Origin: an uncultured archaeon
GTDB lineage: Archaea; Iainarchaeota; Iainarchaeia; Iainarchaeales; 0-14-0-20-30-16
Assembly: GCA_964595665.1 (NCBI GenBank)
Contig: CAZQQS010000014.1
Coordinates: 1-14,140 of the forward strand
Direction: 5' to 3'
DNA length: 14,140 nt
How positions within the stretch are numbered: the first letter of the stretch is position 1; every line of letters begins with the position of its first letter. The notes under the pieces were generated by a model. That model was not told the DNA's origin and made no database searches. It saw nothing but the letters and a program-made list of their open reading frames with translations. The position numbers and the translations under genes were made by a program. Below, piece by piece: positions 1,465-13,814 of this stretch.

Positions 1465-1474
1465 ATTAAAAATA

Positions 1475-1671
1475 TGCCAAGAAGGGGACTTGAACCCCCG
1501 ACCTCCAGATTTCTCATTGCAAGAAATCTATATTTTATAATCATCAACCAATGCTTTATGCATTGTACTACCTTGTGTAGTACGCGGCGTAGACTGACGC
1601 AACGGTCTCATCACTCATAAATTTTTTAATAATTATGAGTCTGGCGCTCTAACCAGCTGAGCTACCTTGGC
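1475..1671 (-). tRNA. tRNA with anticodon CAT (elongator Met, or CAU-type Ile2), intron-containing
   Basis: The reverse complement folds as a cloverleaf. Acceptor GCCAAGG/TCTTGGC (one G-U); D arm GCTC-AGCTGGTTA-GAGC; anticodon stem CCAGA/TCTGG with loop CT-CAT-AA; variable loop AGGTC; T arm GGGGG-TTCAAGT-CCCCT; discriminator A; no encoded CCA. Exons 1634-1671 and 1475-1510 give a 74-nt mature tRNA. The anticodon stem lacks the three G-C pairs typical of initiators. Met and Ile2 cannot be separated by eye. Confidence 0.9.
1511..1633 (-). other. 123-nt tRNA intron at canonical position 37/38 with bulge-helix-bulge splice motif
   Basis: Exon CTCA (anticodon loop) pairs with intron-3' TGAG to form the central 4-bp helix. 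It is flanked by 3-nt bulges TA|A (5' site) and AA|A (3' site), each cut after the second bulge nucleotide, as expected for the archaeal splicing endonuclease. The intron core is locally GC-rich and holds two perfect hairpins: GTACTAC-ACAAG-GTAGTAC (plus 1565-1583) and CAATGC-ATAAA-GCATTG (plus ~1548-1565). Confidence 0.8.
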
Positions 1672-1679
1672 ACTATATC

Positions 1680-2955: not shown

Positions 2956-3975
2956 ATGAGTTTTTTAATTATAGGAAATAAATTGGAATCTTTAATCCTT
3001 TCTGATTATTTATATGAACATGGTTGGCCAGTAAATTTAATGTCTAAGCTTGGTTTTGAATATAGGGGCGATTATGAGTTAGCTAATCCAAAAGAATTGG
3101 AAAAGTTAGGTTTTGATTACAAACCTTATATTTTGACTGAAATTCATAAAATGAAGGTAATAGATTATTTTGGGAATATTTTAGAAAGAAATACACATAC
3201 AATATTATTAAATTTGTCTAAACCAAGCAATGATTTGTATATAAAATTAAAAAAAACCTCTAAAGTATATACTGATACCACATATATTGACAAAAATAAT
3301 GAAAACATATTTATTCAGCAAGGAGTTCATGGAACTTTATTAAAAGCAAAACACGTTTTTGCAGTAAATGATTTAAATTTAGCAAATAACTTAAAAACTA
3401 AAAAATGTATTAAAGCGAGTATAGAATTAAAAAATGAAATAGGATTATTAACTTTAAAATTTTTGGAAACAGGTTATTTATGGTATGTTAATTATTCCGC
3501 AAGAGTTTCTGAATTGTGTATTATATCTGATACACCAGAAAAAGATTTGGAAACATTTATTTTGGAAACTGGTGCAAAAATAATTTATAGAAAAGGAATT
3601 TTATTACCCTATTTTAAATCTGAAAGACCTTTAGAAAATAAAGGGGTTTATTTATCTGGAGATAGTGCTTTTATTAATAATAATTTAAATTTTTATAATT
3701 TTACTTTAAAAATAGATTTTATGCATTTAACCTGTAAGTTTGCACATGATTTAATGACTAAGAAAAATATAAGTTATGCTTTTTTTACAAGAGATTTTGA
3801 TAAATTATTAGACAAATACTCTAAGCAAGGAGATGTTTTTTGGAGTTTATCTAAAGAACAAAGAAATAAACTAATTGAAAAAATGTCTTTTAATAAGTTC
3901 GCATTAGATTTTAGTTCTGCATTTGAAAATAGTTCTATATTATCTTTGCCTAAAATAAAATTATTGTTTAGATGA
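2956..3975 (+). CDS. Geranylgeranyl-reductase-like (FAD-dependent oxidoreductase fold) protein with degenerate cofactor motifs
   Basis: Co-linear by eye with archaeal digeranylgeranylglycerophospholipid reductases. AKHVFAVNDLNL matches AxxVIGADG, GYLWYVNYS matches GYxWVFP, and GVYLSGDSAFINN matches GxxLVGDAAGxxxP. The N-terminal dinucleotide-binding GxGxxG is G-N-K-L-E-S here. SD-like GTGAT at 2948-2952 precedes ATG 2956. Confidence 0.5.
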   Translation: MSFLIIGNKLESLILSDYLYEHGWPVNLMSKLGFEYRGDYELANPKELEKLGFDYKPYILTEIHKMKVIDYFGNILERNTHTILLNLSKPSNDLYIKLKKTSKVYTDTTYIDKNNENIFIQQGVHGTLLKAKHVFAVNDLNLANNLKTKKCIKASIELKNEIGLLTLKFLETGYLWYVNYSARVSELCIISDTPEKDLETFILETGAKIIYRKGILLPYFKSERPLENKGVYLSGDSAFINNNLNFYNFTLKIDFMHLTCKFAHDLMTKKNISYAFFTRDFDKLLDKYSKQGDVFWSLSKEQRNKLIEKMSFNKFALDFSSAFENSSILSLPKIKLLFR

Positions 3976-3979
3976 TTAC

Positions 3980-5071
3980 ATGCCTGAAGTTAATTTAAAA
4001 TATAAATTTATTGATCAATTAAAGAAATTATCTTTATTTTCTAACTGGAAGTTTTTTTTATTTTTGCTTTTTGGAATAATTTTATTAATAATATTATTTT
4101 TAAAATTTGATTTTGGATTGTTATTTAATTCTTTTAAAACATTGGGCATTTTAGGATTAGGAATTATATTTCTAATATCTTTATTTGAACAATATTTGTT
4201 TTATATTAGATTTAAGATATTTTATAAGAAAAAGTATTCTTTAAAAGAATTTATTTATTATATTCCAACAAATTTTTCTAGCCAAGTTATTCCTCCACCA
4301 CCAGTAGGGTATTATGCTAGATTTTTGTTAACCAAATATTATTATAAAACATCAATTAAACAAAGTATTTTTTTAGTAATGATTGATAATTTTTTAGAAG
4401 CTGCATCATTTTTAGTTTTTGCAATATTTGGATTAATATTCTTCCCAGAAACAGATTTGGGTTTAGGAATATTATTAGTATCTTTGTTTGTAATTGGAAT
4501 ATTGTATTATGTATTTAATTATTACGAAACTAAAAAAGAAATAATAAAATCTAGTGTTTTCAAGAAGATAATTAATTATTTATCAAAAATAAAATCTAAG
4601 TTTTTAGTATCTATCTATAAAGATATTAAGAAAAATAAGTTGAGGATATTTTTAGCTTTTTTATTGTCTTTATTTAAATTTATAATAAATATTTTGAAAG
4701 TTTATGTTTTATTTTATTTGTTGGGTAATCCCTTAAGTATTATTGCTGTATTTGGGTTAGTTTCAATATATTTATTTATTAGTGCAACTTCTTCTTTACC
4801 AGGAGGTATAGGTGTAGCAGAATTATCGTTTGTATTATTAGCTTCGAGTTTAGGTGTAGATGAGAATTTAGCTTTATTAATTGCGTTATTAGAGAGATTT
4901 TTTTCAGTTTGGTTGTGGGTATTATTGGGTGCAATAATAGTAGTTTATGAAAAAGCAAATATTGCTAAAGTTCATAGAAAGTTTTTAACGTTTTTGGCCA
5001 ACACTTATGAAAATATTAAATTAAATAAATCTAAAAAGAAGATGAAATTATTTAATAATAAAAATAAGTGA
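3980..5071 (+). CDS. Polytopic membrane protein, UPF0104 / lysyl-phosphatidylglycerol-synthase TM-region (flippase-like) family
   Basis: About 8 hydrophobic segments. The motif SSLPGGIGVAELSF (P-G-G-I-G-V-A-E at 4799-4822) matches the conserved PGG[LI]G..E signature of the MprF-TM/UPF0104 family. It starts 4 nt after the upstream stop. Confidence 0.6.
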   Translation: MPEVNLKYKFIDQLKKLSLFSNWKFFLFLLFGIILLIILFLKFDFGLLFNSFKTLGILGLGIIFLISLFEQYLFYIRFKIFYKKKYSLKEFIYYIPTNFSSQVIPPPPVGYYARFLLTKYYYKTSIKQSIFLVMIDNFLEAASFLVFAIFGLIFFPETDLGLGILLVSLFVIGILYYVFNYYETKKEIIKSSVFKKIINYLSKIKSKFLVSIYKDIKKNKLRIFLAFLLSLFKFIINILKVYVLFYLLGNPLSIIAVFGLVSIYLFISATSSLPGGIGVAELSFVLLASSLGVDENLALLIALLERFFSVWLWVLLGAIIVVYEKANIAKVHRKFLTFLANTYENIKLNKSKKKMKLFNNKNK

Positions 5072-5076
5072 TGTTT

Positions 5077-6348
5077 ATGAAATCTTTTTCAATAAAAACT
5101 TATGGTTGTTCATCAAATATTGCGGATAGTGAATTTATTAAAAATATTTTGATCGAATCAAACTATAAATTTATTGAGAAAAATGCTGATTTTTTTATAG
5201 TAAATAGTTGTTCTGTTAAAGGCCCTACAGTAAATAAAATAAAAGATTTTATTAAAACATTAAAACAAAAAAAACAAAATATAATTATTATGGGTTGTTT
5301 ACCAAGTGATAAAAAAACATTAGATTATTTAAAAGATTATTCTATAATTAGCCCTTATAATATAGATTTAATTGATAAGGCATTTGAAGAAATAATTAGA
5401 TCTCAAAAACCAATTAAATATTTGGATTTAAAGTATTTGGATAAAACCCTTTTAGAATCTAATATAAAAAATATTGCAATTGTGCAACCATTAATTGGAT
5501 GTTTGGGAAATTGTTATTTTTGTAAAACAAAATTAGCTAAGCCTTTATTTAATAGTTATCCTTTGGAGAACATTTTAAATAGAATTGATAAAAATATTAA
5601 ACAAGGCGCAAAAGAAATTTGGATTAGTTCAGAAGATAATGCTGCTTATGGTTATGATATTGGAAAAAATTATATGGATTTATTAAATTCTATAGAAGAA
5701 AGATTTAAAGGAAAAGCAATGTTTAGGTTTGGGATGAGTAATCCTTGGCTTTTAAGAAAACATGAAAAAGAATTAATTAAATTTTTTAAAGAAACAAAAT
5801 CATTTTACAAATTTTTACATATTCCTATACAAAGTGCATCTTCAAAAGTTTTAAAAAATATGAATAGACCTTATACTGAAAAACAATTAGAAAGTTTTTT
5901 TACAAAGATTAGAAAAGAATTTAAAGAAAACGAATTAAATTTAACAACCGATATTATAGTTGGATATCCAACTGAAACAAAAGAAGATTATTTAAAAACA
6001 AAAAGATTTATTAAAAAATATAAGTTTTTAGTAGCAAATGTTTCTCAAATTTGGCCAATGCCATTTACTAAGACTATTGAGATGAAACAATTACCAACAG
6101 AAATTAAGAAAGAAAGAAGTAGAGACTTATCTGAATTTGTAAGAGCGTTATCCAAATCTTATTTAAAAAATTATGTTGGCAAAACTTTAGAAATTTATTT
6201 TAATGATTTAGATAACGAGGGAAACATCTTGGGAAGAACAAAGAATTATGTTTCTGTGATTATGAAAAAACCTAAAAATAATCCTGAATTAGGTAAATGG
6301 AGTAAACATAAGATTACAGCTATTGAAAATTTTCATTTATTAGTTTAG
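5077..6348 (+). CDS. mtaB: Radical-SAM methylthiotransferase, MiaB/RimO/MtaB family (archaeal/eukaryotic CDKAL1-like t6A37 methylthiotransferase most likely)
   Basis: N-terminal UPF0004 domain: IKTYGCSSNIADSE...VNSC...GC. Radical-SAM C-x3-C-x2-C: C-LGN-C-YF-C at 5500-5523. HIPIQSAS...L..MNRPYT block and a C-terminal TRAM-like segment (GKTLEIYFND...GRTKNYV) are present. Start candidates are GTG 5068, ATG 5071 and ATG 5077. I chose 5077 because GTGAT 5068-5072 sits 4 nt upstream. Confidence 0.85.
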   Translation: MKSFSIKTYGCSSNIADSEFIKNILIESNYKFIEKNADFFIVNSCSVKGPTVNKIKDFIKTLKQKKQNIIIMGCLPSDKKTLDYLKDYSIISPYNIDLIDKAFEEIIRSQKPIKYLDLKYLDKTLLESNIKNIAIVQPLIGCLGNCYFCKTKLAKPLFNSYPLENILNRIDKNIKQGAKEIWISSEDNAAYGYDIGKNYMDLLNSIEERFKGKAMFRFGMSNPWLLRKHEKELIKFFKETKSFYKFLHIPIQSASSKVLKNMNRPYTEKQLESFFTKIRKEFKENELNLTTDIIVGYPTETKEDYLKTKRFIKKYKFLVANVSQIWPMPFTKTIEMKQLPTEIKKERSRDLSEFVRALSKSYLKNYVGKTLEIYFNDLDNEGNILGRTKNYVSVIMKKPKNNPELGKWSKHKITAIENFHLLV

Positions 6349-6375
6349 CTATTATTGAGAATATAAAAAGATATA

Positions 6376-6410
6376 TTTATATATATTTAAACAGTACTAA
6401 TTTAGAGGTG
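6376..6410 (+). promoter_or_regulatory. Putative promoter (TATA-like TTTATATA 6376-6383) and Shine-Dalgarno (AGAGGTG 6404-6410) of the surface-protein operon
   Basis: The 68-nt spacer after mtaB holds an alternating AT tract with TTTATATA preceded by an A-rich stretch (BRE-like). It also holds the best match in the window to the anti-SD complement GGAGGTG, 6 nt before ATG 6417. Confidence 0.35.
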
Positions 6411-6416
6411 TAAGCT

Positions 6417-7388
6417 ATGTTTAATGGTAAAAGTAATGTTATTTTAATATTTGTATTTATTTTTATATTTTTATTTAGTGGATTAAATTTTATTTCTAGT
6501 GAAGATACTTTTGATGTTGGGGTAAGTGTTTCTAATGGAGTCCCTGAAATTCAAGATGTGAATGTTTGTGAAGTAGATACTTGTTCTAAATATATTGATG
6601 AAATAATTCCAGGTAATAGTACCTTTGTTTTACAAGTTCAAGGTTATGATCCTAATGGAATTATAGATATTAATTGGGATGCTACTGTAGTTCATATTTA
6701 TGCCGAAGGCTTATCTTTCGATAGTAATGTAGATTTTGATGGAAATTTAGATTATAGAAAATATTCTGTGAATACTAGTTTGACTGAAGAGTATAATGGT
6801 TTTATTTTTGAAGATGGCGAGGGTTGTACGAGTAGTTCAACTAGTGTTTCCGAGGTAAAATGTTTGAAATTTACGGAAGATATTTTTACTTATGGTTTTG
6901 CTTTAGGTGGTGCAAACATATATGTTCAAATATTTGATAATGCGGATGAAGATTCTGATTATGATTTGATGTTTTTAGAAGATGTAAATGGATTAAATAT
7001 AGGTTTGTCTTTAAGTTTTGCCATAGGTATTAGTGATGAACATGGAATAACTTATTCTGGTGCACCAGGAGATGAAAATGTAGAATTTTATAATGCTGAT
7101 AATACTAGCAATTATTTTGATATAACTAATGAAAGTAATACAAATATTGATTTGAATTTAAGCCATACAGATTTATTATATGATTTAAATAATAGTATAA
7201 CAATCGATAAAGAATATATTCACGGCAATAAAAAAGACCAAAATTTTGGTTTAGGTAGTTTATTCTTGCCTGTGAATTTAGGTATAGATGCAACTATGCA
7301 ATTAAAAACATATTTAGATATTCCAGTAGGTATACCTTCAGGAGCATATTCTGGTACTTTGGGTGTTGCTATAACTCAAAGAGAATAG
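6417..7388 (+). CDS. Secreted protein P1, unknown function; stand-alone copy of the domain found at the C-terminus of P4
   Basis: N-terminal signal-like segment (KSNVILIFVFIFIFLFSGLNFISS). No C-terminal anchor. Acidic, with many N-x-S/T sequons. Predicted beta-rich, ending ...LDIPVGIPSGAYSGTLGVAITQRE. Homologous by eye to P4 residues ~613-879, sharing the motifs PEI, EDGEGC, SG-x-PG-[DE]-EN and LD-[IM]-P...SG-x-YSGT. Confidence 0.8.
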   Translation: MFNGKSNVILIFVFIFIFLFSGLNFISSEDTFDVGVSVSNGVPEIQDVNVCEVDTCSKYIDEIIPGNSTFVLQVQGYDPNGIIDINWDATVVHIYAEGLSFDSNVDFDGNLDYRKYSVNTSLTEEYNGFIFEDGEGCTSSSTSVSEVKCLKFTEDIFTYGFALGGANIYVQIFDNADEDSDYDLMFLEDVNGLNIGLSLSFAIGISDEHGITYSGAPGDENVEFYNADNTSNYFDITNESNTNIDLNLSHTDLLYDLNNSITIDKEYIHGNKKDQNFGLGSLFLPVNLGIDATMQLKTYLDIPVGIPSGAYSGTLGVAITQRE

Positions 7389-7397
7389 TGAGTTAAC

Positions 7398-8018
7398 ATG
7401 AATAAAGGTTGGTTAATATTAATATTTGGAATAATTTTAAGCTCGTATGTTTCAGCTTTAGCTTGTGTTGGTTTGGGTGGTGGGGGCTATACTGTTTTAA
7501 CATCAAAAGAACAACCAACATATATTACTTATACTATCTTTAATAAAGATTCTAAAGGTGTTTGTGATAGTGGGCGATATTCTTTAGAATTAACTTTAGA
7601 TTCTGAGGATATCTATAAAGTGTTTGATTTTGTAATTTCGGATGATGGTTTTATATTAAACGATGGGGAATCTAAAAAAGTATTAATCACATTAATCCCT
7701 TTAGTAGAAGATGGCAATTATACTTTAAAGGTTTCAGCTTTAAGAGCTGGTTTAATTGAAACACAGAATGCTACTGCGGTTATGCCCAAAACTATTAGTT
7801 CGATTAAAATAAATGTTAATGAGGAATATAATTCTAAATTTACTGATTTACCAAAGTGGTATATTTTAAAACAAAAAGAACGAAAACAATTTATATTTAA
7901 GATAGTTATTTTATCAATTATAATAATAGTAATTATTTTTGTAATTTTGTATTTAGTTTTATTTAGATTTAAAAAAATAAAATCAATTAGAAAATCAACT
8001 TCTTACAAATATAAGTGA
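7398..8018 (+). CDS. Membrane-anchored surface protein P2 (signal peptide, single beta-sandwich-like ectodomain, C-terminal TM helix plus basic tail)
   Basis: N-terminus MNKGWLILIFGIILSSYVSALA. The ectodomain has a CARDB/Ig-like pattern: ...FILNDGESKKVLITLIPLVEDGNYTLKVSA. The C-terminus is FIFKIVILSIIIIVIIFVILYLVLF followed by RFKKIKSIRKSTSYKYK. It starts 9 nt after the P1 stop. Confidence 0.75.
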   Translation: MNKGWLILIFGIILSSYVSALACVGLGGGGYTVLTSKEQPTYITYTIFNKDSKGVCDSGRYSLELTLDSEDIYKVFDFVISDDGFILNDGESKKVLITLIPLVEDGNYTLKVSALRAGLIETQNATAVMPKTISSIKINVNEEYNSKFTDLPKWYILKQKERKQFIFKIVILSIIIIVIIFVILYLVLFRFKKIKSIRKSTSYKYK

Positions 8019-8023
8019 TTTCT

Positions 8024-9385
8024 TTGAAGATTAATTTTATTTTAATAATTTTTTTAGTATTATTTTTAACTCCAAATATTTTTAGTAAAGAGTTTTCAGT
8101 TGGTGCAATTATTTTAAATGGAGCCCCACTAAAACCAGAGCTTATTGAAATAAATGATCTTTATGGTATTAATAATATTGCTTTTAGTTGGAGTAGTTTT
8201 GATTATGAACATGATTCTATAAAATATTTTTTACAAGTTGGTTCTTTTTTAGGTAGTAAAGATATTTTAGATATTAATTTAGATGAAAATTATTATAATA
8301 TAACTCTAGATCTAGGAAAACAGTATTTTTATAGGGTTAAAGCTTGCGATAATTATTATGGAGATTATAATAATTGTAGTGATTGGGGTTACGATTCATT
8401 TTATTTATTAACATTTATAATAATTCCTCCTTCAGGAGGTGGAGGGGGTGGGTCTTCAAGTTCTCAAGTAATAATTTATGGTTGTAAAGAATTAGAGGGA
8501 ATAATTTGTAATTCAAATGAATTATGTTATGATAATTTAATTGCTACTTATGATACACAAAGTTGTTGTTTTTCAAAATGTATTTTAAAAGATGATTTGG
8601 GTAAGGTTGTGGATTCAAATATAGCCCAAATTGATTTGGAATTAAGTTCGCCAATTAACGAAATTATTGCAGTATATCCTTTAGATGGGGTAATAAATCT
8701 TTTTCAAAAAAGGTTTTTAACAGATTCAGAAATAACTATAAAAAAAACAATGAGAATTTATAATATAATTAATGTTTATGGTATGCCAGAATATAGGGTA
8801 TTTATATTTATTACTATTAAAAATATTTCTAAGGATAAATTAACTAATTTAGAGATTTTAACTCTTGTTCCAAATAGTTTTGTAAATGATCTTTATGAAG
8901 TAAATAGTAACAATATATTTATTAGGGTTGTTGATAAAAATATGCTAAAATTTGATAAAGATTTTTTAGATTCTGGAGAAAGTTATAATATAGATTATTA
9001 TTTTGATACTAGTAAAGAATTTATAGTTTTAGAAAATTTATTTAAGGGTTTATCAGCACCTTTGGTTTTGACTAAAATGGATGATTCTGATAATTGTGCA
9101 GGTATTTTTTGTAATGATTTTAATCCTTGTACGACAGATTTTTGTCATGATGGTTTTTGTAAATTTATAAATAATAATCTAAATTGTGAGAATGGAAGGT
9201 GTATTGGGGGTAAGTGTGTATTAGTAATTCCTGAAAAAAAATCTTTAATTAATTGGAAAATATATCTTGTAATTGGAGTAATTTTATTTATAATTATAAT
9301 TTTTGTTTTATTAATATATTTTTTACGTAAACCAAAAAACAAAGAACATTGGTTTTTACAATCAAATATAAGGGATTTTATATGA
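8024..9385 (+). CDS. Membrane-anchored mosaic surface protein P3 (signal peptide, FN3-like domain, Gly/Ser linker, Cys-rich modules, beta-sandwich, C-terminal TM)
   Basis: FN3-like pattern: IAFSWSS...YFLQVGS...YFYRVKACD. Linker PPSGGGGGGSSSS (about 8428-8466). Cys cluster: C-x7-C-x5-C-x13-CC-x3-C. Second Cys-rich block CNDFNPCTTDFCHDGFC...C..G.C..GKC (9080-9220) resembles the C-x-D-x-N-x-C-T-x-D-x-C repeat signature. TM segment WKIYLVIGVILFIIIIFVLLIYFL is followed by RKPKNK. No ATG is available: the options are GTG 8015 (track) or TTG 8024, which is preferred because GTGAT 8015-8019 sits 4 nt upstream. Confidence 0.75.
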   Translation: MKINFILIIFLVLFLTPNIFSKEFSVGAIILNGAPLKPELIEINDLYGINNIAFSWSSFDYEHDSIKYFLQVGSFLGSKDILDINLDENYYNITLDLGKQYFYRVKACDNYYGDYNNCSDWGYDSFYLLTFIIIPPSGGGGGGSSSSQVIIYGCKELEGIICNSNELCYDNLIATYDTQSCCFSKCILKDDLGKVVDSNIAQIDLELSSPINEIIAVYPLDGVINLFQKRFLTDSEITIKKTMRIYNIINVYGMPEYRVFIFITIKNISKDKLTNLEILTLVPNSFVNDLYEVNSNNIFIRVVDKNMLKFDKDFLDSGESYNIDYYFDTSKEFIVLENLFKGLSAPLVLTKMDDSDNCAGIFCNDFNPCTTDFCHDGFCKFINNNLNCENGRCIGGKCVLVIPEKKSLINWKIYLVIGVILFIIIIFVLLIYFLRKPKNKEHWFLQSNIRDFI

Positions 9386-12021
9386 GTATTTGGAATGTAT
9401 TTTATAAGGTTTTATTTATTATAATTTTTTTGTTTGGTAATGTTTTTGTTTTTTGTGATAGTTTTTATGATTCATTACAAACAGATTTTGATTTAGGTAG
9501 TTTTAATAATACTATTTCACACGAAGATGGTCATATAATATTAGATACTTCTGGTTCAAATTATTATTCTGATGGTGAATTTGAATCGCAAATCTTTGAT
9601 GCCGGAATAAATTCTAATTTAACTTCATTAAAATTTTCTACACCTAATTATTATAAACAAGATTTGCCTGGAAATGGAGGTGCAGAAAAAGATATTAATA
9701 TGTATGGAAATGTTTTTTTAATGAATGTTAATAATGATTCTATTATAGCGGATGTTGCCGAAAGTTATGGTTTGGGCTTAGTAGGAACATTTAGTTCAGT
9801 TAGTGGAAAATTTGGTAATGCATTAAGTTTTAATGGTTCTAATAATATTGCTTTTACAGATATTTTAGTCCCGTCAAATGAATATACTTTTTCATTGTGG
9901 ATAAAAACAAATACTAAGAGCAGACCTGTATTTACTTTTTCTAATGAAACGCCTTCTAATTCTACTTATGATAGAAGATTAAGTATTGATGCTTCTGGGC
10001 ATTTAGTATATTATGTTTATCCAAACACAGGGGTTACTTTAACAGGCACTAATACAACTGTTGCAAATAATAGTTGGCATCATATTGCTATTGTAAGTAA
10101 ATATAATGGTTCAAAATATGATATTAATGTTTATTTTGATGGTAGTTTGGATTCTAGTGCTACTAATTTAAATTTTGGAGGTTATAATGGTTATACTTTA
10201 CCAAGATTAAATTTGGGAAATAGTGGAACGTTTTTTTTAGGTGCTTTAGATGATTTTGCATATTATGATCGAGCTTTAAGTTTTGATGAAATTCAAGATA
10301 TTTACAATTCTGGAGATGGTTTGGAATTTTGGGAAGATGATTTAATTGCTGGTTGGCGGTTTGAAGAAACAAACCCTGCTTTAAGTTTAGAAGATACTTC
10401 ACCAACACCCAAAACTTTTGTATATCCTACAGTTACAAATAATTATTTGGGTATAGGGTATAGCCCTTACAATTATTATAGTTTATTTTCTCAAAATATT
10501 TATGCGAATACAAATTATTATTTGAAAACATCACAATTCTATCCTCCAACTGCCGCTATGAGTATTAGTTTTTGGATGAAAACTAAATTAGATCGAAAAA
10601 GTATTTTAGGATGGGTTGGGGGTATGGCAAACAATAGTGTGTTTATTGAAAATGGAAATTTAAAATGGTATTTTTCATCAGCACCAACGTATTTTGCAAG
10701 TACTTCTGCATTAAATGATGGTGAATGGCATCATATAGTTTTAACGCGTAATGCAAATAATTCTAGAAAAATATATGTTGATGGAGTATTAAATAATACA
10801 TCTACAAGTACATATACTATAGATAATAGTTTTACAACTGCCGTAGCATTGTATTTTTTTCATAGTGCTGTATATAGTGCTGGTTCAGGAACATTGGATC
10901 AAGTATCTGTATGGTCTCGAGAGTTAGTTTTAGATGAAATATCGAATATTTACAAAAGAGGTGTTGGCGAATTAAGATTACAATTAAAAGGTTGTGCGAT
11001 TTCAGATTGTTCAGATTCTGTTTTTGTAGGTCCTGATGGCGAAGATTCTTATTTTGAATTAACTAATTCAGAGTATGATTTGTCAAATTTATTTTCTGGA
11101 TTCAGATATTTTCAGTATGCGAGTTTTTTTGAAGTTTTAGATTTAATTGCTTCAAAAAACATATCTCCAAAATTAGAAGATGTTAATTTAAGTTATGAAT
11201 CTGCAGTTGTAGAAAATTCCGAACCCGAGATTTTAAGTTTGCAAATTTGTAAAGATGGTTGTGAAAATTCAAAATATATTTTGCCGGGTTTAGAATCGTT
11301 TATTGTAAAATTAGAAATCAATGATTCTGATGGTTTTGAAGATTTAAATTTAGATTCAAGTATTTTGAAAATATATTCTAATATTTTAACATCTGATTCA
11401 GAAGATGATTGGGATCACATAACTTTAACGAATTTAATAAATGAAGATGGGGAAGGATGTATTACGGAGTATAATTATATTTGTTATTTGGTATCGGATA
11501 GTAATATACCCTTAAAATTTAGTTCTGGTGCAACTAATGTTTTTTTTGGAATTTCTGATTCAGTTTCAAATTATGATAATTATGAATTAGAATATTTGTT
11601 AGATGAAAATGATGTTTTGATCTCTGGAATTGATATGGGAGAAGTTCTAAGTTTAAGTATTGATACTAGTTCTGGTAATTTTTCAGGGAATCCTGGAGAA
11701 GAGAATATTCCTATAAGTACCAACACTTCAGAAAACTATATTGCTATAACTCATGAAGGTAATTGTGATGTAAATTTATATTTGGTAACGAGTGAGTTAA
11801 TTTATTCGGATTATGAATTTCCTATTTCTGCTTTTGAATGGAATTTAGAAGACATTGTTTTAGAAAATCATTTAGATAGTAATGAAACATTAATTATCGA
11901 GGATTGGTCGCGAGGTGTTTATCCAGATTCAAATATAAATCATATTTTTCTTTGGTTAGATATGCCACCAGTTGTTTCTGGAGAATATTCGGGAACATTT
12001 TCTTTTGAAGTAAGAAATTAG
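9382..12021 (+). CDS. Large secreted adhesin-like protein P4: signal peptide, N-terminal beta module, two LamG (concanavalin A-like lectin/glucanase) domains, Cys-containing spacer, C-terminal P1-like domain
   Basis: LamG-1 (~9720-10320): GKFGNALSFNGSNN...YTFSLWIKT...WHHIAIV...VYFDGSL...GALDDFAYYDRALSFDEIQDIY. LamG-2 (~10340-10968): MSISFWMKT...EWHHIVLT...IYVDGVL...LDQVSVWSRELVLDEISNIY. Both match the Laminin_G_3 pattern. The C-terminal part (11218-12018) is paralogous to P1. I place the start at ATG 9382, which gives an ATGA overlap with the P3 stop and the signal peptide MSIWNVFYKVLFIIIFLFGNVFVFC. The track uses TTG 9349. Confidence 0.85.
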   Translation: MSIWNVFYKVLFIIIFLFGNVFVFCDSFYDSLQTDFDLGSFNNTISHEDGHIILDTSGSNYYSDGEFESQIFDAGINSNLTSLKFSTPNYYKQDLPGNGGAEKDINMYGNVFLMNVNNDSIIADVAESYGLGLVGTFSSVSGKFGNALSFNGSNNIAFTDILVPSNEYTFSLWIKTNTKSRPVFTFSNETPSNSTYDRRLSIDASGHLVYYVYPNTGVTLTGTNTTVANNSWHHIAIVSKYNGSKYDINVYFDGSLDSSATNLNFGGYNGYTLPRLNLGNSGTFFLGALDDFAYYDRALSFDEIQDIYNSGDGLEFWEDDLIAGWRFEETNPALSLEDTSPTPKTFVYPTVTNNYLGIGYSPYNYYSLFSQNIYANTNYYLKTSQFYPPTAAMSISFWMKTKLDRKSILGWVGGMANNSVFIENGNLKWYFSSAPTYFASTSALNDGEWHHIVLTRNANNSRKIYVDGVLNNTSTSTYTIDNSFTTAVALYFFHSAVYSAGSGTLDQVSVWSRELVLDEISNIYKRGVGELRLQLKGCAISDCSDSVFVGPDGEDSYFELTNSEYDLSNLFSGFRYFQYASFFEVLDLIASKNISPKLEDVNLSYESAVVENSEPEILSLQICKDGCENSKYILPGLESFIVKLEINDSDGFEDLNLDSSILKIYSNILTSDSEDDWDHITLTNLINEDGEGCITEYNYICYLVSDSNIPLKFSSGATNVFFGISDSVSNYDNYELEYLLDENDVLISGIDMGEVLSLSIDTSSGNFSGNPGEENIPISTNTSENYIAITHEGNCDVNLYLVTSELIYSDYEFPISAFEWNLEDIVLENHLDSNETLIIEDWSRGVYPDSNINHIFLWLDMPPVVSGEYSGTFSFEVRN

Positions 12022-12027
12022 TTTAGG

Positions 12028-12035
12028 TTTTAAAT
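12028..12035 (+). promoter_or_regulatory. TATA-like box (TTTTAAAT) positioned for a leaderless herA transcript
   Basis: The box centre lies ~25-26 nt upstream of ATG 12057, the usual archaeal TATA-to-TSS distance. There is no SD-like element in the 35-nt spacer. A T5 run (12037-12041) could also terminate the upstream operon. Confidence 0.3.
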
Positions 12036-12056
12036 CTTTTTGTTGTATTTAATATT

Positions 12057-13562
12057 ATGTCTGATTATATTGGTACAGTTTTAACTTATAATAATACTCC
12101 GAGCATAGATAAAGTATATTTTCAATTAAATGATAAAATTAATTTGAAAATAGGTCAATTTGTGTCCATAGAGCACGATAACAAAGTATTTGGTATGGTA
12201 ACAGGAATATTTAGGGATAATCCTTTTTTTGAACAATTGCATACAGATTTTCATAGTATAAAAGATGCTTTTGATACTACTACTTGGCATAAAACATTAG
12301 TTGAGGTTAATTTATTGGGTTCATTTGTTGATGGCAAACCAAATAAAATTATTAATCCTCCTTATTCGGGTTCGAGAGTTAATTTTGCATTATCTAATGA
12401 AATTATTTCTTTTTTGGGATTTAGTGCTGATGGGTTATATTTGGGAAATATTGAAACAGATAATGAAAATGTAGATGTTAAAATTAATTTATCCAAATTA
12501 TTGCAAAAGCATTTTGCTATTTTGGCAATGAGTGGTGCTGGAAAGTCATATGCAATTTCTGTTTTGTTAGAAGAATTATTATCTATGCCAAAAGAAAAGT
12601 CTTTAGGGTTAGTTTTATTTGATGTTCATGGAGAATACAGAAATTTTGCGGAACCATCATCTAAAGAGTTTACAGATTATAGTTCTAAAGTTAGATATTA
12701 TGATGCTTCTCAAATGAAGTTTGCCTTACATTCATTAAATGATAGTTTTTTATTTAATATTTTAGGAGATATTTCTGAAGTTCAAAAAAGAGAGTTATTA
12801 AAAATCTTAAATGAGTTCAAAAAAGATGATGAAAAGAAAGTTTTTGATTTACAAGATATTATGAATTATTTAGAAAGTTTAGATTTAAAGAAAAATGTTA
12901 AAGAGCCATTATTAAATTGGTTAGCACAAGCTGAAAGTCAAAATATTTTTAGTAAAACAAATACTTTTGATATATTTAAGATTGCAGAACAAGGTAAATT
13001 AACAATTATTGATTTGTCAAATGTTTTGAATATGCTTCATAAGCAAATGATTGTAGCATATTTATCTAATAAATTATTTGAATTACGAAGATTGGAAAAA
13101 ATAGTTCCATTTACAATATTTTTAGAAGAGGCACATCAATTTATTCCTCAATCTGGTGCAAGTGAATTTATGAAATCTCGAGCAGTTTTTGAAACTATTG
13201 CAAGAGAAGGTAGAAAGTTTGGGGCATCTTTATGTTTGATTTCTCAAAGACCAATAAATTTATCTACAACTGTTTTAAGTCAATGTAATACACATATGCT
13301 TTTGAGAGTTATTAATCCAAATGATTTAAAACACATTTCCGAGTCATCCGAAGGTTTAGATTCTTCAAGTATAAAGTTAATTACTGGTTTAAATGTTGGT
13401 GAAGCTTTGTTAGTTGGTTCGGCAGTAAAGTATCCTGTATTTTTTAAAGTTAGAGAAAGAAAGTCTCAACCAAATAAATACGAATTAGATTTAGAACAAA
13501 TGTCTAAAAAATTCTTAAATAAAAAAGAAGAAAAAGAAAAAGATTTGGATTTATTTATGTAA
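12057..13562 (+). CDS. herA: HerA-type hexameric DNA translocase/helicase ATPase (COG0433, DUF87 core) with N-terminal HAS-barrel
   Basis: HAS-barrel-like N-terminus: IGTVLTY...KIGQFVSIEHDNKVFGMVTGI. Walker A: ILAMSGAGKS (about 12525-12548). Walker B: FTIFLEEAHQF (about 13110-13137). IAREGRKFGASLCLISQRPINLSTTVLSQCNTHMLLRVINPND...LNVGEALLVG is co-linear over the full length with crenarchaeal HerA as I recall it. Confidence 0.85.
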   Translation: MSDYIGTVLTYNNTPSIDKVYFQLNDKINLKIGQFVSIEHDNKVFGMVTGIFRDNPFFEQLHTDFHSIKDAFDTTTWHKTLVEVNLLGSFVDGKPNKIINPPYSGSRVNFALSNEIISFLGFSADGLYLGNIETDNENVDVKINLSKLLQKHFAILAMSGAGKSYAISVLLEELLSMPKEKSLGLVLFDVHGEYRNFAEPSSKEFTDYSSKVRYYDASQMKFALHSLNDSFLFNILGDISEVQKRELLKILNEFKKDDEKKVFDLQDIMNYLESLDLKKNVKEPLLNWLAQAESQNIFSKTNTFDIFKIAEQGKLTIIDLSNVLNMLHKQMIVAYLSNKLFELRRLEKIVPFTIFLEEAHQFIPQSGASEFMKSRAVFETIAREGRKFGASLCLISQRPINLSTTVLSQCNTHMLLRVINPNDLKHISESSEGLDSSSIKLITGLNVGEALLVGSAVKYPVFFKVRERKSQPNKYELDLEQMSKKFLNKKEEKEKDLDLFM

Positions 13563-13814
13563 TTATAATCTATTCTTTTTCTTAACTAATCTTATTTCAA
13601 TTAATTGGAATATAATTCCTATAAGCATTAATATCGCTGTTAAGTAAATCCAATAAATTAACCAATTAGTTGGTAAAAAATTGAATATTGTTAAAATCAA
13701 TAATATTATTAAGAATATAATTCCAAAAATAAATCCTTCAAGAATTCCTTTTGTTGTCCAATGTAATTTATTCCAAATCTTTTTTAAACTATTATTTGAA
13801 TTGTTTTTTTTCAT
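13563..13814 (-). CDS. Small membrane protein, two predicted TM helices, unknown function
   Basis: 83 aa. Basic N-terminus, then two hydrophobic segments (GFIFGIIFLIILLILTIFNFL and LIYWIYLTAILMLIGIIFQLI), then a basic tail. Its ATG overlaps the TGA of the upstream minus-strand ORF (ATGA). An AAGGCG SD-like element lies 5 nt upstream. Confidence 0.55.
   Translation of the reverse strand: MKKNNSNNSLKKIWNKLHWTTKGILEGFIFGIIFLIILLILTIFNFLPTNWLIYWIYLTAILMLIGIIFQLIEIRLVKKKNRL

Follow-up and report, generated by a model that had tools for sequence, protein, structure and literature searches.

What do four neighboring genes for exported proteins build on the surface of an uncultured archaeon when, as far as sequence searches tell, only the LamG domains of the last of them belong to a named family? 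The genes, P1 to P4, lie together on the forward strand of a 14,140-nucleotide (nt) contig from a member of the Iainarchaeota, with 25% GC, which we refer to in full as the window or W. Apart from type IV pili and some scattered giant LamG proteins, little is known of how small uncultured archaea, many of which are presumed symbionts, attach to surfaces or partner cells. An earlier note on this DNA had proposed that the four genes encode a single surface module without enzymes, and this claim is supported by our analysis. We found that P1 is repeated as the C-terminal part of P4 and that genes for this shared module lie beside P2-like and P3-like genes in distant lineages. We read P1 to P4 as one Sec-exported, multisubunit cell-surface adhesin, a surface-display complex, and give this reading an even chance of being right.

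The shared P1 module and its gene neighborhood

The key to the architecture of the locus, absent from the earlier note, is a module common to P1 and P4. P1 (6417 to 7388, forward strand; 323 residues, without an anchor) has a paralogue in the C-terminal ∼270 residues of P4 (9382 to 12021, forward strand; 879 residues), with 30% identity over 225 residues and an E value of 4e-22 in BLASTP. Mature P1 is the module standing alone, and in P4 it occupies residues ∼606 to 879 (11197 to 12018, forward strand). Four invariant cysteines and a common C-terminal LD(I/M)P..G.Y(S/T)G motif are seen when four P1 sequences are aligned with four P4 tails.

We compared W with its close relatives A (L001-6), B (L007-9) and C (L010), with D (L011), and with the distant loci L037, L038 and L040 to L045, scanned with hidden Markov models (HMMs) of P1, P2 and P3. 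Word-indexed homology searches returned only the close relatives and P0007, missing P4 and B/C orthologues, and an exhaustive profile search was therefore required to obtain the family. It comprises 164 representative clusters (63 at E≤1e-10), either stand-alone proteins of ∼270 to 330 residues or long proteins of up to ∼1,300 residues, mostly ∼730 to 1,300. The module is C-terminal in the long homologues, ending 1 to 5 residues before the stop codon in the 20 sequences that we read and by hit coordinates among the best 150, and the passengers N-terminal to it vary widely, including LamG domains, propeller-like repeats, FN3 domains and beta-helix-like repeats. No member of the family reached a Pfam threshold, and there is no Pfam or NCBIfam model for it.

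AlphaFold2 (AF2) with a 56-sequence alignment modeled P1 as two beta-sandwiches, with a predicted local distance difference test score (pLDDT) of 86.9 and a predicted template modeling score (pTM) of 0.77; with only 4 sequences the model was unusable (pLDDT 44). A Sec-type signal (residues 1 to ∼28) and a conserved N-terminal strand with an NxxP motif (∼31 to 43) precede sandwich 1 (residues 44 to 174), which holds 4 conserved cysteines, and sandwich 2 (residues 179 to 321). The last P1 strands align with the N-terminal sandwich of GH123 proteins (PDB profile search, E of 5.6e-6). One remote family member matched WxLIP_PGBD, at an E value of 0.054 only.

The order MiaB-P1-P2-P3-P4-HerA is maintained in A, B and C, but these loci are syntenic throughout, housekeeping genes included, and are therefore uninformative on linkage when taken alone. 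At the distant loci, all of those examined place P1-module genes next to P2-like or P3-like genes or to anchored proteins of the same topology. L038 (40% GC) has an 833-residue protein with a P1-module tail, P1, P2 (8e-31), a P3 with five FN3 repeats (6e-109) and a small anchored protein. In L044 (36% GC), a LamG protein with the module as its tail is followed by two P1 genes, P2, P3 and a small anchored protein, and in L041 (31% GC) a long P1-tailed protein is followed by P1, P2 (4e-62) and a P3 split into two open reading frames (ORFs). L037 (GC not available) shows a long P1-tailed protein, P1 and P2; L042 (45% GC) shows P1, P2 and an anchored protein that resembles P1 in its N-terminal part; L043 (38% GC) shows an anchored protein, P1, a 781-residue P1-tailed protein, a weak P2 and another anchored protein; and in L045 (52% GC) a long P1-tailed protein and P1 precede two signal-plus-transmembrane proteins without detectable similarity to P2 or P3. 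D (GC not available) has P2 followed by P3. Finally, LamG proteins with P1-module tails alternate 1:1 in L040 (47% GC) with ∼415-residue anchored proteins that join a P2 ectodomain and a P3 middle domain in one chain and so link the two in the Rosetta-stone manner.

Neighbors of P1-like genes were found by the P2 HMM in L037, L038, L040, L041, L042 and L044, and the P3 HMM matched in L011, L038, L041 and L044, with domain-level matches in L040 and L042. The three HMMs gave 0 matches in 25 unrelated archaeal or other loci, which served as the negative control. Co-localization spans ∼10 lineages, with GC contents from 25 to 52%, and where the contexts of the distant loci could be classified they are archaeal (fibrillarin/Nop, Alba, histone fold). 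The earlier note had named scattered, never co-localized homologues as the outcome that would speak against one surface module; what we observed is the opposite arrangement.

Some further features of these loci were recorded. The anchored proteins of L040 are encoded at 827 to 2083, 5374 to 6612 and 13789 to 19548 of that locus, and one of its genes encodes a 1,920-residue protein beginning with a P2-like domain. An ORF resembling HNH/homing endonucleases (PHROG endonuclease, 1.5e-40) lies inside the surface-gene cluster of L044 (11470 to 12555), and at the corresponding place in L038 (16156 to 16875) there is a 239-residue ORF without a PHROGs match.

Operon structure, topology and cassette-limited divergence

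The four co-directional ORFs follow one another closely behind an operon leader (6349 to 6416, forward strand). This 68-nt spacer contains an AT-rich, TATA-like run at ∼6377 to 6389 and the Shine-Dalgarno (SD) sequence GAGGTG at 6405 to 6410, 6 nt before the P1 ATG; AGAGGT before the P1 start is kept in A and B, in agreement with the promoter-like run and strong SD that had been pointed out in the long spacer. The coordinates, strand and ORFs originally given for P1, P2 and P4 proved right, as did the 9-nt gap between P1 and P2 (7398 to 8018, forward strand; 206 residues) and the ATGA overlap between P3 and P4. The start of P3 had to be moved. It had been placed at 8024, with the P2 stop inside the SD sequence, but the junction reads AAGTGA in W, A and B, forming a 4-nt GTGA overlap with the P2 stop, and we therefore take the GTG at 8015, not the TTG at 8024, as the P3 start (8015 to 9385, forward strand; 456 residues). 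Tight coupling of the genes (−7 to +19 nt) is maintained in three relatives. The analysis supports a single unit of surface proteins, transcribed together and containing no enzyme.

On the right, the cassette is bounded by 12022 to 12056 (forward strand), where a T-run follows the P4 stop and a TTTAAAT box lies ∼25 nt ahead of the HerA ATG. This P4-HerA spacer is nearly identical in W and A, so we counted it as conserved flank. The P4 coding region contains, in its final 45 nt, a terminator-like hairpin of 10 pairs (11973 to 12006), followed by TTTTCTTTTG; with the further T-run after the P4 stop, it may form the operon terminator.

All four proteins begin with a hydrophobic Sec-type segment (MFNGKSNV.. 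in P1, MNKGWLIL.. in P2, MISLKINF.. in P3 and MSIWNVFYK.. in P4). P2 and P3 end in a transmembrane (TM) helix, at residues ∼165 to 189 and ∼415 to 437, respectively, followed by a basic tail, and P1 and P4 have neither. P2 is a type I membrane anchor by topology prediction. This arrangement, already recognized in the earlier note, is maintained in the orthologues. Neither C terminus carries a PGF or LPXTG motif or an NCBIfam sorting-signal match at cutoff.

Behind its signal peptide, P2 has a conserved mature N terminus (LACVGLGGGGY), a ∼140-residue ectodomain with 2 conserved cysteines, a juxtamembrane LPxWY motif and a basic tail ending in FKYK. Two other kinds of signal were considered for P2 and rejected: a lipobox (LAC), since the Leu is at −2 and not at −3 and the Cys is missing in L040 and L043, and a class III signal (MNKG/W), since KG is not kept in the orthologues (MNKIF, MNKYF). 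The N-terminal part of P3 consists of the signal peptide, a P1-like strand with NxxP, an FN3/Ig-like domain (residues ∼28 to 135) and a Gly/Ser linker (∼139 to 151); the rest comprises Cys-rich knot 1 (157 to 189), a middle domain (∼190 to 355), Cys-rich knot 2 (361 to 402; CxDxNPCTxDxC) and the tail HWFLQSNIRDF. P3 has 16 cysteines and a Dicty_CTDC-like motif. Its N-terminal domain gave a weak PDB match to an FN3 domain, and the FN3/Ig-like repeat reached the Pfam threshold for Ig_Rha78A_N in the L038 homologue.

P4 starts with a signal peptide and an N-terminal domain with a DFxLGxF motif and continues with two LamG domains, a short Cys-containing domain and the P1 module. Laminin_G_3 (PF13385) matched at 126.5 bits against a gathering cutoff of 27.6, in two stretches; P1 to P3 have no LamG domain. 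The best stretch, LamG domain 1, covers residues 151 to 305 (9832 to 10296, forward strand; 1.2e-36). The second stretch corresponds to LamG domain 2, with inferred limits at residues ∼385 to 520 (10534 to 10941, forward strand), where Laminin_G_2 (419 to 478) and Toxin_R_bind_N (390 to 475) also matched. Beyond the LamG domains, the Pfam scan of P1 to P4 gave no family above threshold, and P1, P2 and P3 had no family match in Pfam, NCBIfam, PHROGs or PDB sequence searches. Of the domains previously assigned, the two LamG domains, the sandwiches of P1 (in the AF2 model), the FN3/Ig-like domain and the Cys-rich character of P3 hold up, while CARDB never reached threshold. The four proteins are rich in Asn, Ser and Thr and low in charge, and the N-x-S/T sequons that had been singled out are not enriched over this composition, P4 having 19 against 14.5 ± 3.2 in shuffled sequences.

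The P4 N-terminal domain (residues ∼30 to 100, window ∼9470 to 9680), with its DFxLGxF(N/D)N motif, is also found at the N terminus of otherwise unrelated metagenomic LamG surface proteins (L030, L032, L033, L035 and L036), some of which have a C-terminal TM anchor replacing the P1 module. When metagenomes were scanned with the P4 alignment, all matches were unrelated LamG proteins, one of them a bacterial type IV pilin-like protein, and none had P1, P2 or P3 as neighbors.

The marked divergence of C from A is limited to the cassette. Judged by fragments of the MiaB and HerA genes on either side, C has A as its closest relative (86 to 88% amino acid identity), with B as the outgroup (49 to 54%). 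P1 to P4 reverse this pattern, with C most divergent (27 to 31% for P1, 36 to 38% for P4) and B at 47 to 60%. At the DNA level, C and A are 83 to 91% identical in the flanks and 40 to 74% in the cassette; the drop begins at the P1 start, with the leader as the left edge of the hypervariable block, and ends sharply at the P4 stop. Common sharp edges and divergence limited to the cassette indicate that the four genes diversified or were replaced as one unit. Judged from these comparisons, the cassette appears to have been diversified or exchanged as one block between close relatives, like other exposed specificity loci.

The cytoplasmic tails of P2 (7965 to 8015) and P3 (9326 to 9382) are better conserved in W, A and B than the ectodomains, reading HWFLQSNI[RK]DF in P3 and ending in FKYK in P2, and those of C, D and the distant loci differ from them, which hints at an intracellular partner specific to the lineage.

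Candidate assemblies

In a surface-display complex, P2 and P3 would be type I membrane proteins with their ectodomains outside, forming a cell-bound base. The P1 module would attach P1 and P4 to this base by binding P2/P3, and P4 would project its two lectin-type LamG domains outward as the distal, ligand-binding end. The target could be a host or partner cell, a glycan or a substrate. In other lineages, the module would carry other passengers, such as beta-propeller-like repeats, FN3 domains or beta-helix-like repeats, and the operon would evolve and be exchanged as a single cassette, as expected for an exposed specificity determinant. The 1:1 pairs of long protein and anchor in L040 and the P2-P3 fusions fit such a display complex, built on the logic of the WxL clusters of Firmicutes.

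Several observations weigh against this interpretation. The conserved neighborhood shows functional linkage between the P1 module, P2 and P3 and not the type of assembly, and for P2 and P3 the evidence on fold comes from motifs and weak profile matches. Foldseek comparison of the P1 model with the PDB gave generic two-Ig matches with TM-scores of 0.2 to 0.33 (WxLIP, RbmA, integrin, Fab and CsuE); WxLIP was the top match, with a probability of 0.99 but a weak TM-score of 0.21 to 0.25. In addition, the conserved N-terminal strand shared by P1 and P3 and the tandem P1 genes of L044 fit a polymerizing fimbria at least as well.

The main rival, unlikely in our judgment though a real contender, is a Sec-dependent donor-strand fimbria of the type 1, thread or tafi kind. 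P4 would then be the tip adhesin, as FimH is, and P1 the polymerizing shaft, its N-terminal strand inserted into the next subunit; P3 would use the same strand as a membrane-anchored terminator or base, and P2 would be a membrane-tethered assembly factor. The segment directly after the signal peptide of stand-alone P1 proteins, v-t-v-t-A-T-V-x-N-x-x-P, is indeed among the most conserved of the family. Signal, strand and NxxP are common to P1 and P3 (hhalign, E of 1.7e-4, probability of 50%), and the strand is replaced by a linker in several long homologues. The two short P1 genes of L044 could be likened to a major and an adapter subunit, ∼165-residue relatives of P1 domain 2 gave repeated weak matches to DUF4402, and the CsuE tip adhesin was the best PDB match by TM-score (0.33/0.36). 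Tafi also have the same cast, with TafC as LamG tip, TafE and TafA as Ig-like subunits and TafF as TM-anchored component (PMC11821415).

Other observations speak against a fimbria. In the monomer model the N-terminal segment has a confident placement (pLDDT of ∼89), but not as a beta-strand. A missing G strand in domain 2 was considered and is unsupported, since in the profile comparisons the final strand of this domain coincides with that of complete sandwiches, the N-terminal one of GH123 and the NEW3 type, with nothing to suggest that a strand is lacking or a groove present. No thread, TasA, Fim or Csu chain matched at E≤10 in PDB sequence and profile searches, and a single match to the PapG lectin domain (E of 1.1) is noise. 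There is no signal peptidase or chaperone gene within the cluster, the LamG position is reversed relative to TafC, and L040, with its long-protein/anchor pairs, has no complete stand-alone P1 gene, its first ORF being cut by the contig end.

We consider it improbable that the proteins form an S-layer or an S-layer-associated lattice, with the anchor-less P4 and P1 as a canopy on the membrane stalks P2 and P3, as SlaA is on SlaB. slaAB has a similar operon organization and pairing of anchored with anchor-less proteins, no other SD and promoter-like spacer in W is as strong as that of the operon, and cassette hypervariability and an N/S/T-rich, low-charge composition are in keeping with such a layer, the former being typical of S-layer loci. 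However, the extremely variable passengers (LamG, propeller-like, beta-helix-like and FN3) and the several paralogues per locus are typical of adhesins and not of a lattice, P3 has its 16 cysteines in knot-like modules, and PDB searches and Foldseek gave no sequence or fold match to any solved S-layer chain.

That four independent surface proteins are merely co-transcribed, their order reflecting shared ancestry and general synteny, is highly improbable. It would account for W, A, B and C, where the whole region is syntenic down to the housekeeping genes, but the linkage persists with other gene orders, other neighbors and GC contents of 31 to 52%, P2-P3 fusions exist, and the divergence extends to all four genes within the same sharp boundaries. 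A virus or mobile-element envelope or spike module, domesticated in some genomes, is barely credible: one homologous cluster (L044) is on an IMG/VR contig, the surroundings of L038 are rich in small ORFs and include transposase, TnpB and restriction-modification genes, L041 has an integrase at a distance of 6 kb from its cluster, and signal, ectodomain, TM helix and short tail are a viral spike topology too, but no capsid, terminase or other hallmark was found, including in the L044 stretch examined, PHROGs gave nothing for P1 to P3, and the chromosomal context of the cassette, with a MiaB-like gene on one side and HerA on the other, is conserved in W, A, B and C.

Whether as display complex or as fimbria, the locus may be one instance of a widespread, unrecognized archaeal surface system, in which the P1 module attaches interchangeable passengers to two type I anchors or polymerizes into a chaperone-free fimbria and a replaceable cassette determines the specificity of small uncultured archaea for partner or host. 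We put forward this broader proposal tentatively, as somewhat short of an even chance. The analysis defines a recurrent four-part gene module, with a diagnostic P1 module that Pfam and NCBIfam do not model and with LamG as the candidate binding end; it names specific subunit pairs, and the P1-module profile can be used to find the system in metagenomes. The block diverges within near-identical genomic backgrounds, and cassette alleles could be correlated with host or virus populations.

Flanking genes and comparison with known systems

The operon of W is accompanied by genes for TyrRS, RNA 3'-phosphate cyclase (RTC), an LPG_synthase_TM-domain protein, a MiaB-like radical-SAM enzyme and HerA, and in relatives also for Hjc, PolB and SRP54. 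These neighbors show only that the source organism is an archaeon. The HerA-type ATPase (HAS-barrel and DUF87; 12057 to 13562) is apparently leaderless behind its TTTAAAT box, and no NurA, Mre11 or Rad50 gene is nearby. It is 34 to 47% identical to HerA of Asgard archaea, Hadarchaeota and Bathyarchaeota in a genome-contig scan, in which no cassette cluster was found, and it follows P4 only in the close relatives. We rejected HerA as a fifth component, as it falls beyond the edge of the hypervariable block, is preceded by a conserved promoter-like spacer of its own and occurs in none of the distant clusters. The region 3' of HerA is a second variable spot beside the cassette: W has an 83-residue protein with two TM helices (13563 to 13814, reverse strand), in place of which A has a 669-residue VWA/Big_9/cadherin-like protein (L001, 17191 to 19200) and B an AAA_17/18 kinase.

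Upstream, the 348-nt gap between the TyrRS and RTC genes contains a tRNA-Met(CAT) gene (1474 to 1672, reverse strand), encoding a 76-nt mature tRNA with an intron of ∼123 nt in the anticodon loop, which was missed by default ARAGORN and Rfam; its exons are conserved in A and B, and the intron length varies. A gene for a 339-residue protein without a family match (2956 to 3975), conserved in A and B, is coupled to that for the LPG_synthase_TM-domain protein (3980 to 5071), which is missing in B.

Several known systems share parts of this architecture. SlaA and SlaB of Sulfolobales likewise combine an anchor-less outer protein and a membrane-anchored stalk protein in one operon; P1 to P4 differ in being four proteins and not two and in their shared module, Cys-rich knots and variable passengers, and no similarity was detected. 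Unlike archaeal type IV pili, they have no conserved class III signal, and W contains no type IV pilus ATPase or platform gene. LamG jelly-roll proteins are expanded in DPANN archaea, often in genomic islands, and have been proposed to serve host interaction (e.g., in Mia14), and beta-propeller proteins fused to a CARDB-like module have been noted there as well (PMC5498576). Those DPANN LamG reports (Mia14 and SPEARE-type giants) concern single proteins or a link to type IV pili; a four-gene module, a C-terminal module and dedicated anchors are not described in them. Our literature search found no description of this four-part module, including for DPANN donor-strand or adhesin clusters.

As in type 1, P and Csu pili (FimH), lectin domains precede a C-terminal subunit-like domain that also occurs alone, but there is no chaperone or usher. 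The threads of Sulfolobus (Saci_0406) are chaperone-free donor-strand filaments exported in a Sec- and signal peptidase I (SPI)-dependent manner (PMC9715654), a route that P1 to P4 would share. P1 to P4 have no sequence match to Fim, Pap, Csu or thread chains, and the profile comparisons of P1 domain 2 gave no evidence of an incomplete fold.

The tafi (Tat-fimbriae) of Haloarcula hispanica, built from TafC, TafE, TafA and TafF and with Sec-dependent DUF1102 relatives (PMC11821415), are likewise encoded in one archaeal cluster; their tip protein bears LamG, and they have small Ig-like subunits as well as a subunit that is pilin-like in its N-terminal part and anchored in the membrane by its C terminus. 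P4 matched the NCBIfam TafC model (NF052521) with an E value of 2.5e-8, but at 33.4 bits against a cutoff of 410 and only in the region of LamG domain 1. The signals of P1 to P4 are Sec-type, without an RR motif, and LamG is N-terminal to the shared module here and C-terminal in TafC. There is no gene for a TafD-type signal peptidase, TafB or TafG, and 6349 to 12056 holds no peptidase gene at all; DUF1102 did not match, and the subunit has two domains and ∼290 residues instead of ∼17 kDa.

The WxL clusters of Firmicutes encode a known surface complex of small WxL, large WxL and WxLIP, the last a DUF916-DUF3324-TM protein (PMC10599100). P1 to P4 have no sequence relationship to them and no WxL, DUF916 or DUF3324 Pfam match, their shared module is two beta-sandwiches, they have two anchors and not one, and the archaeal envelope offers no peptidoglycan to bind. 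Yet the plan is the same, with a small secreted protein consisting of the shared domain only, a large protein that carries this domain C-terminally behind variable binding domains and an Ig-fold, TM-anchored partner (PMC10599100). The earlier claim that no named system describes the locus thus stands as far as membership in the tafi or WxL systems is concerned, and needs qualifying in that both the WxL clusters (PMC10599100) and the tafi (PMC11821415) share its list of parts.

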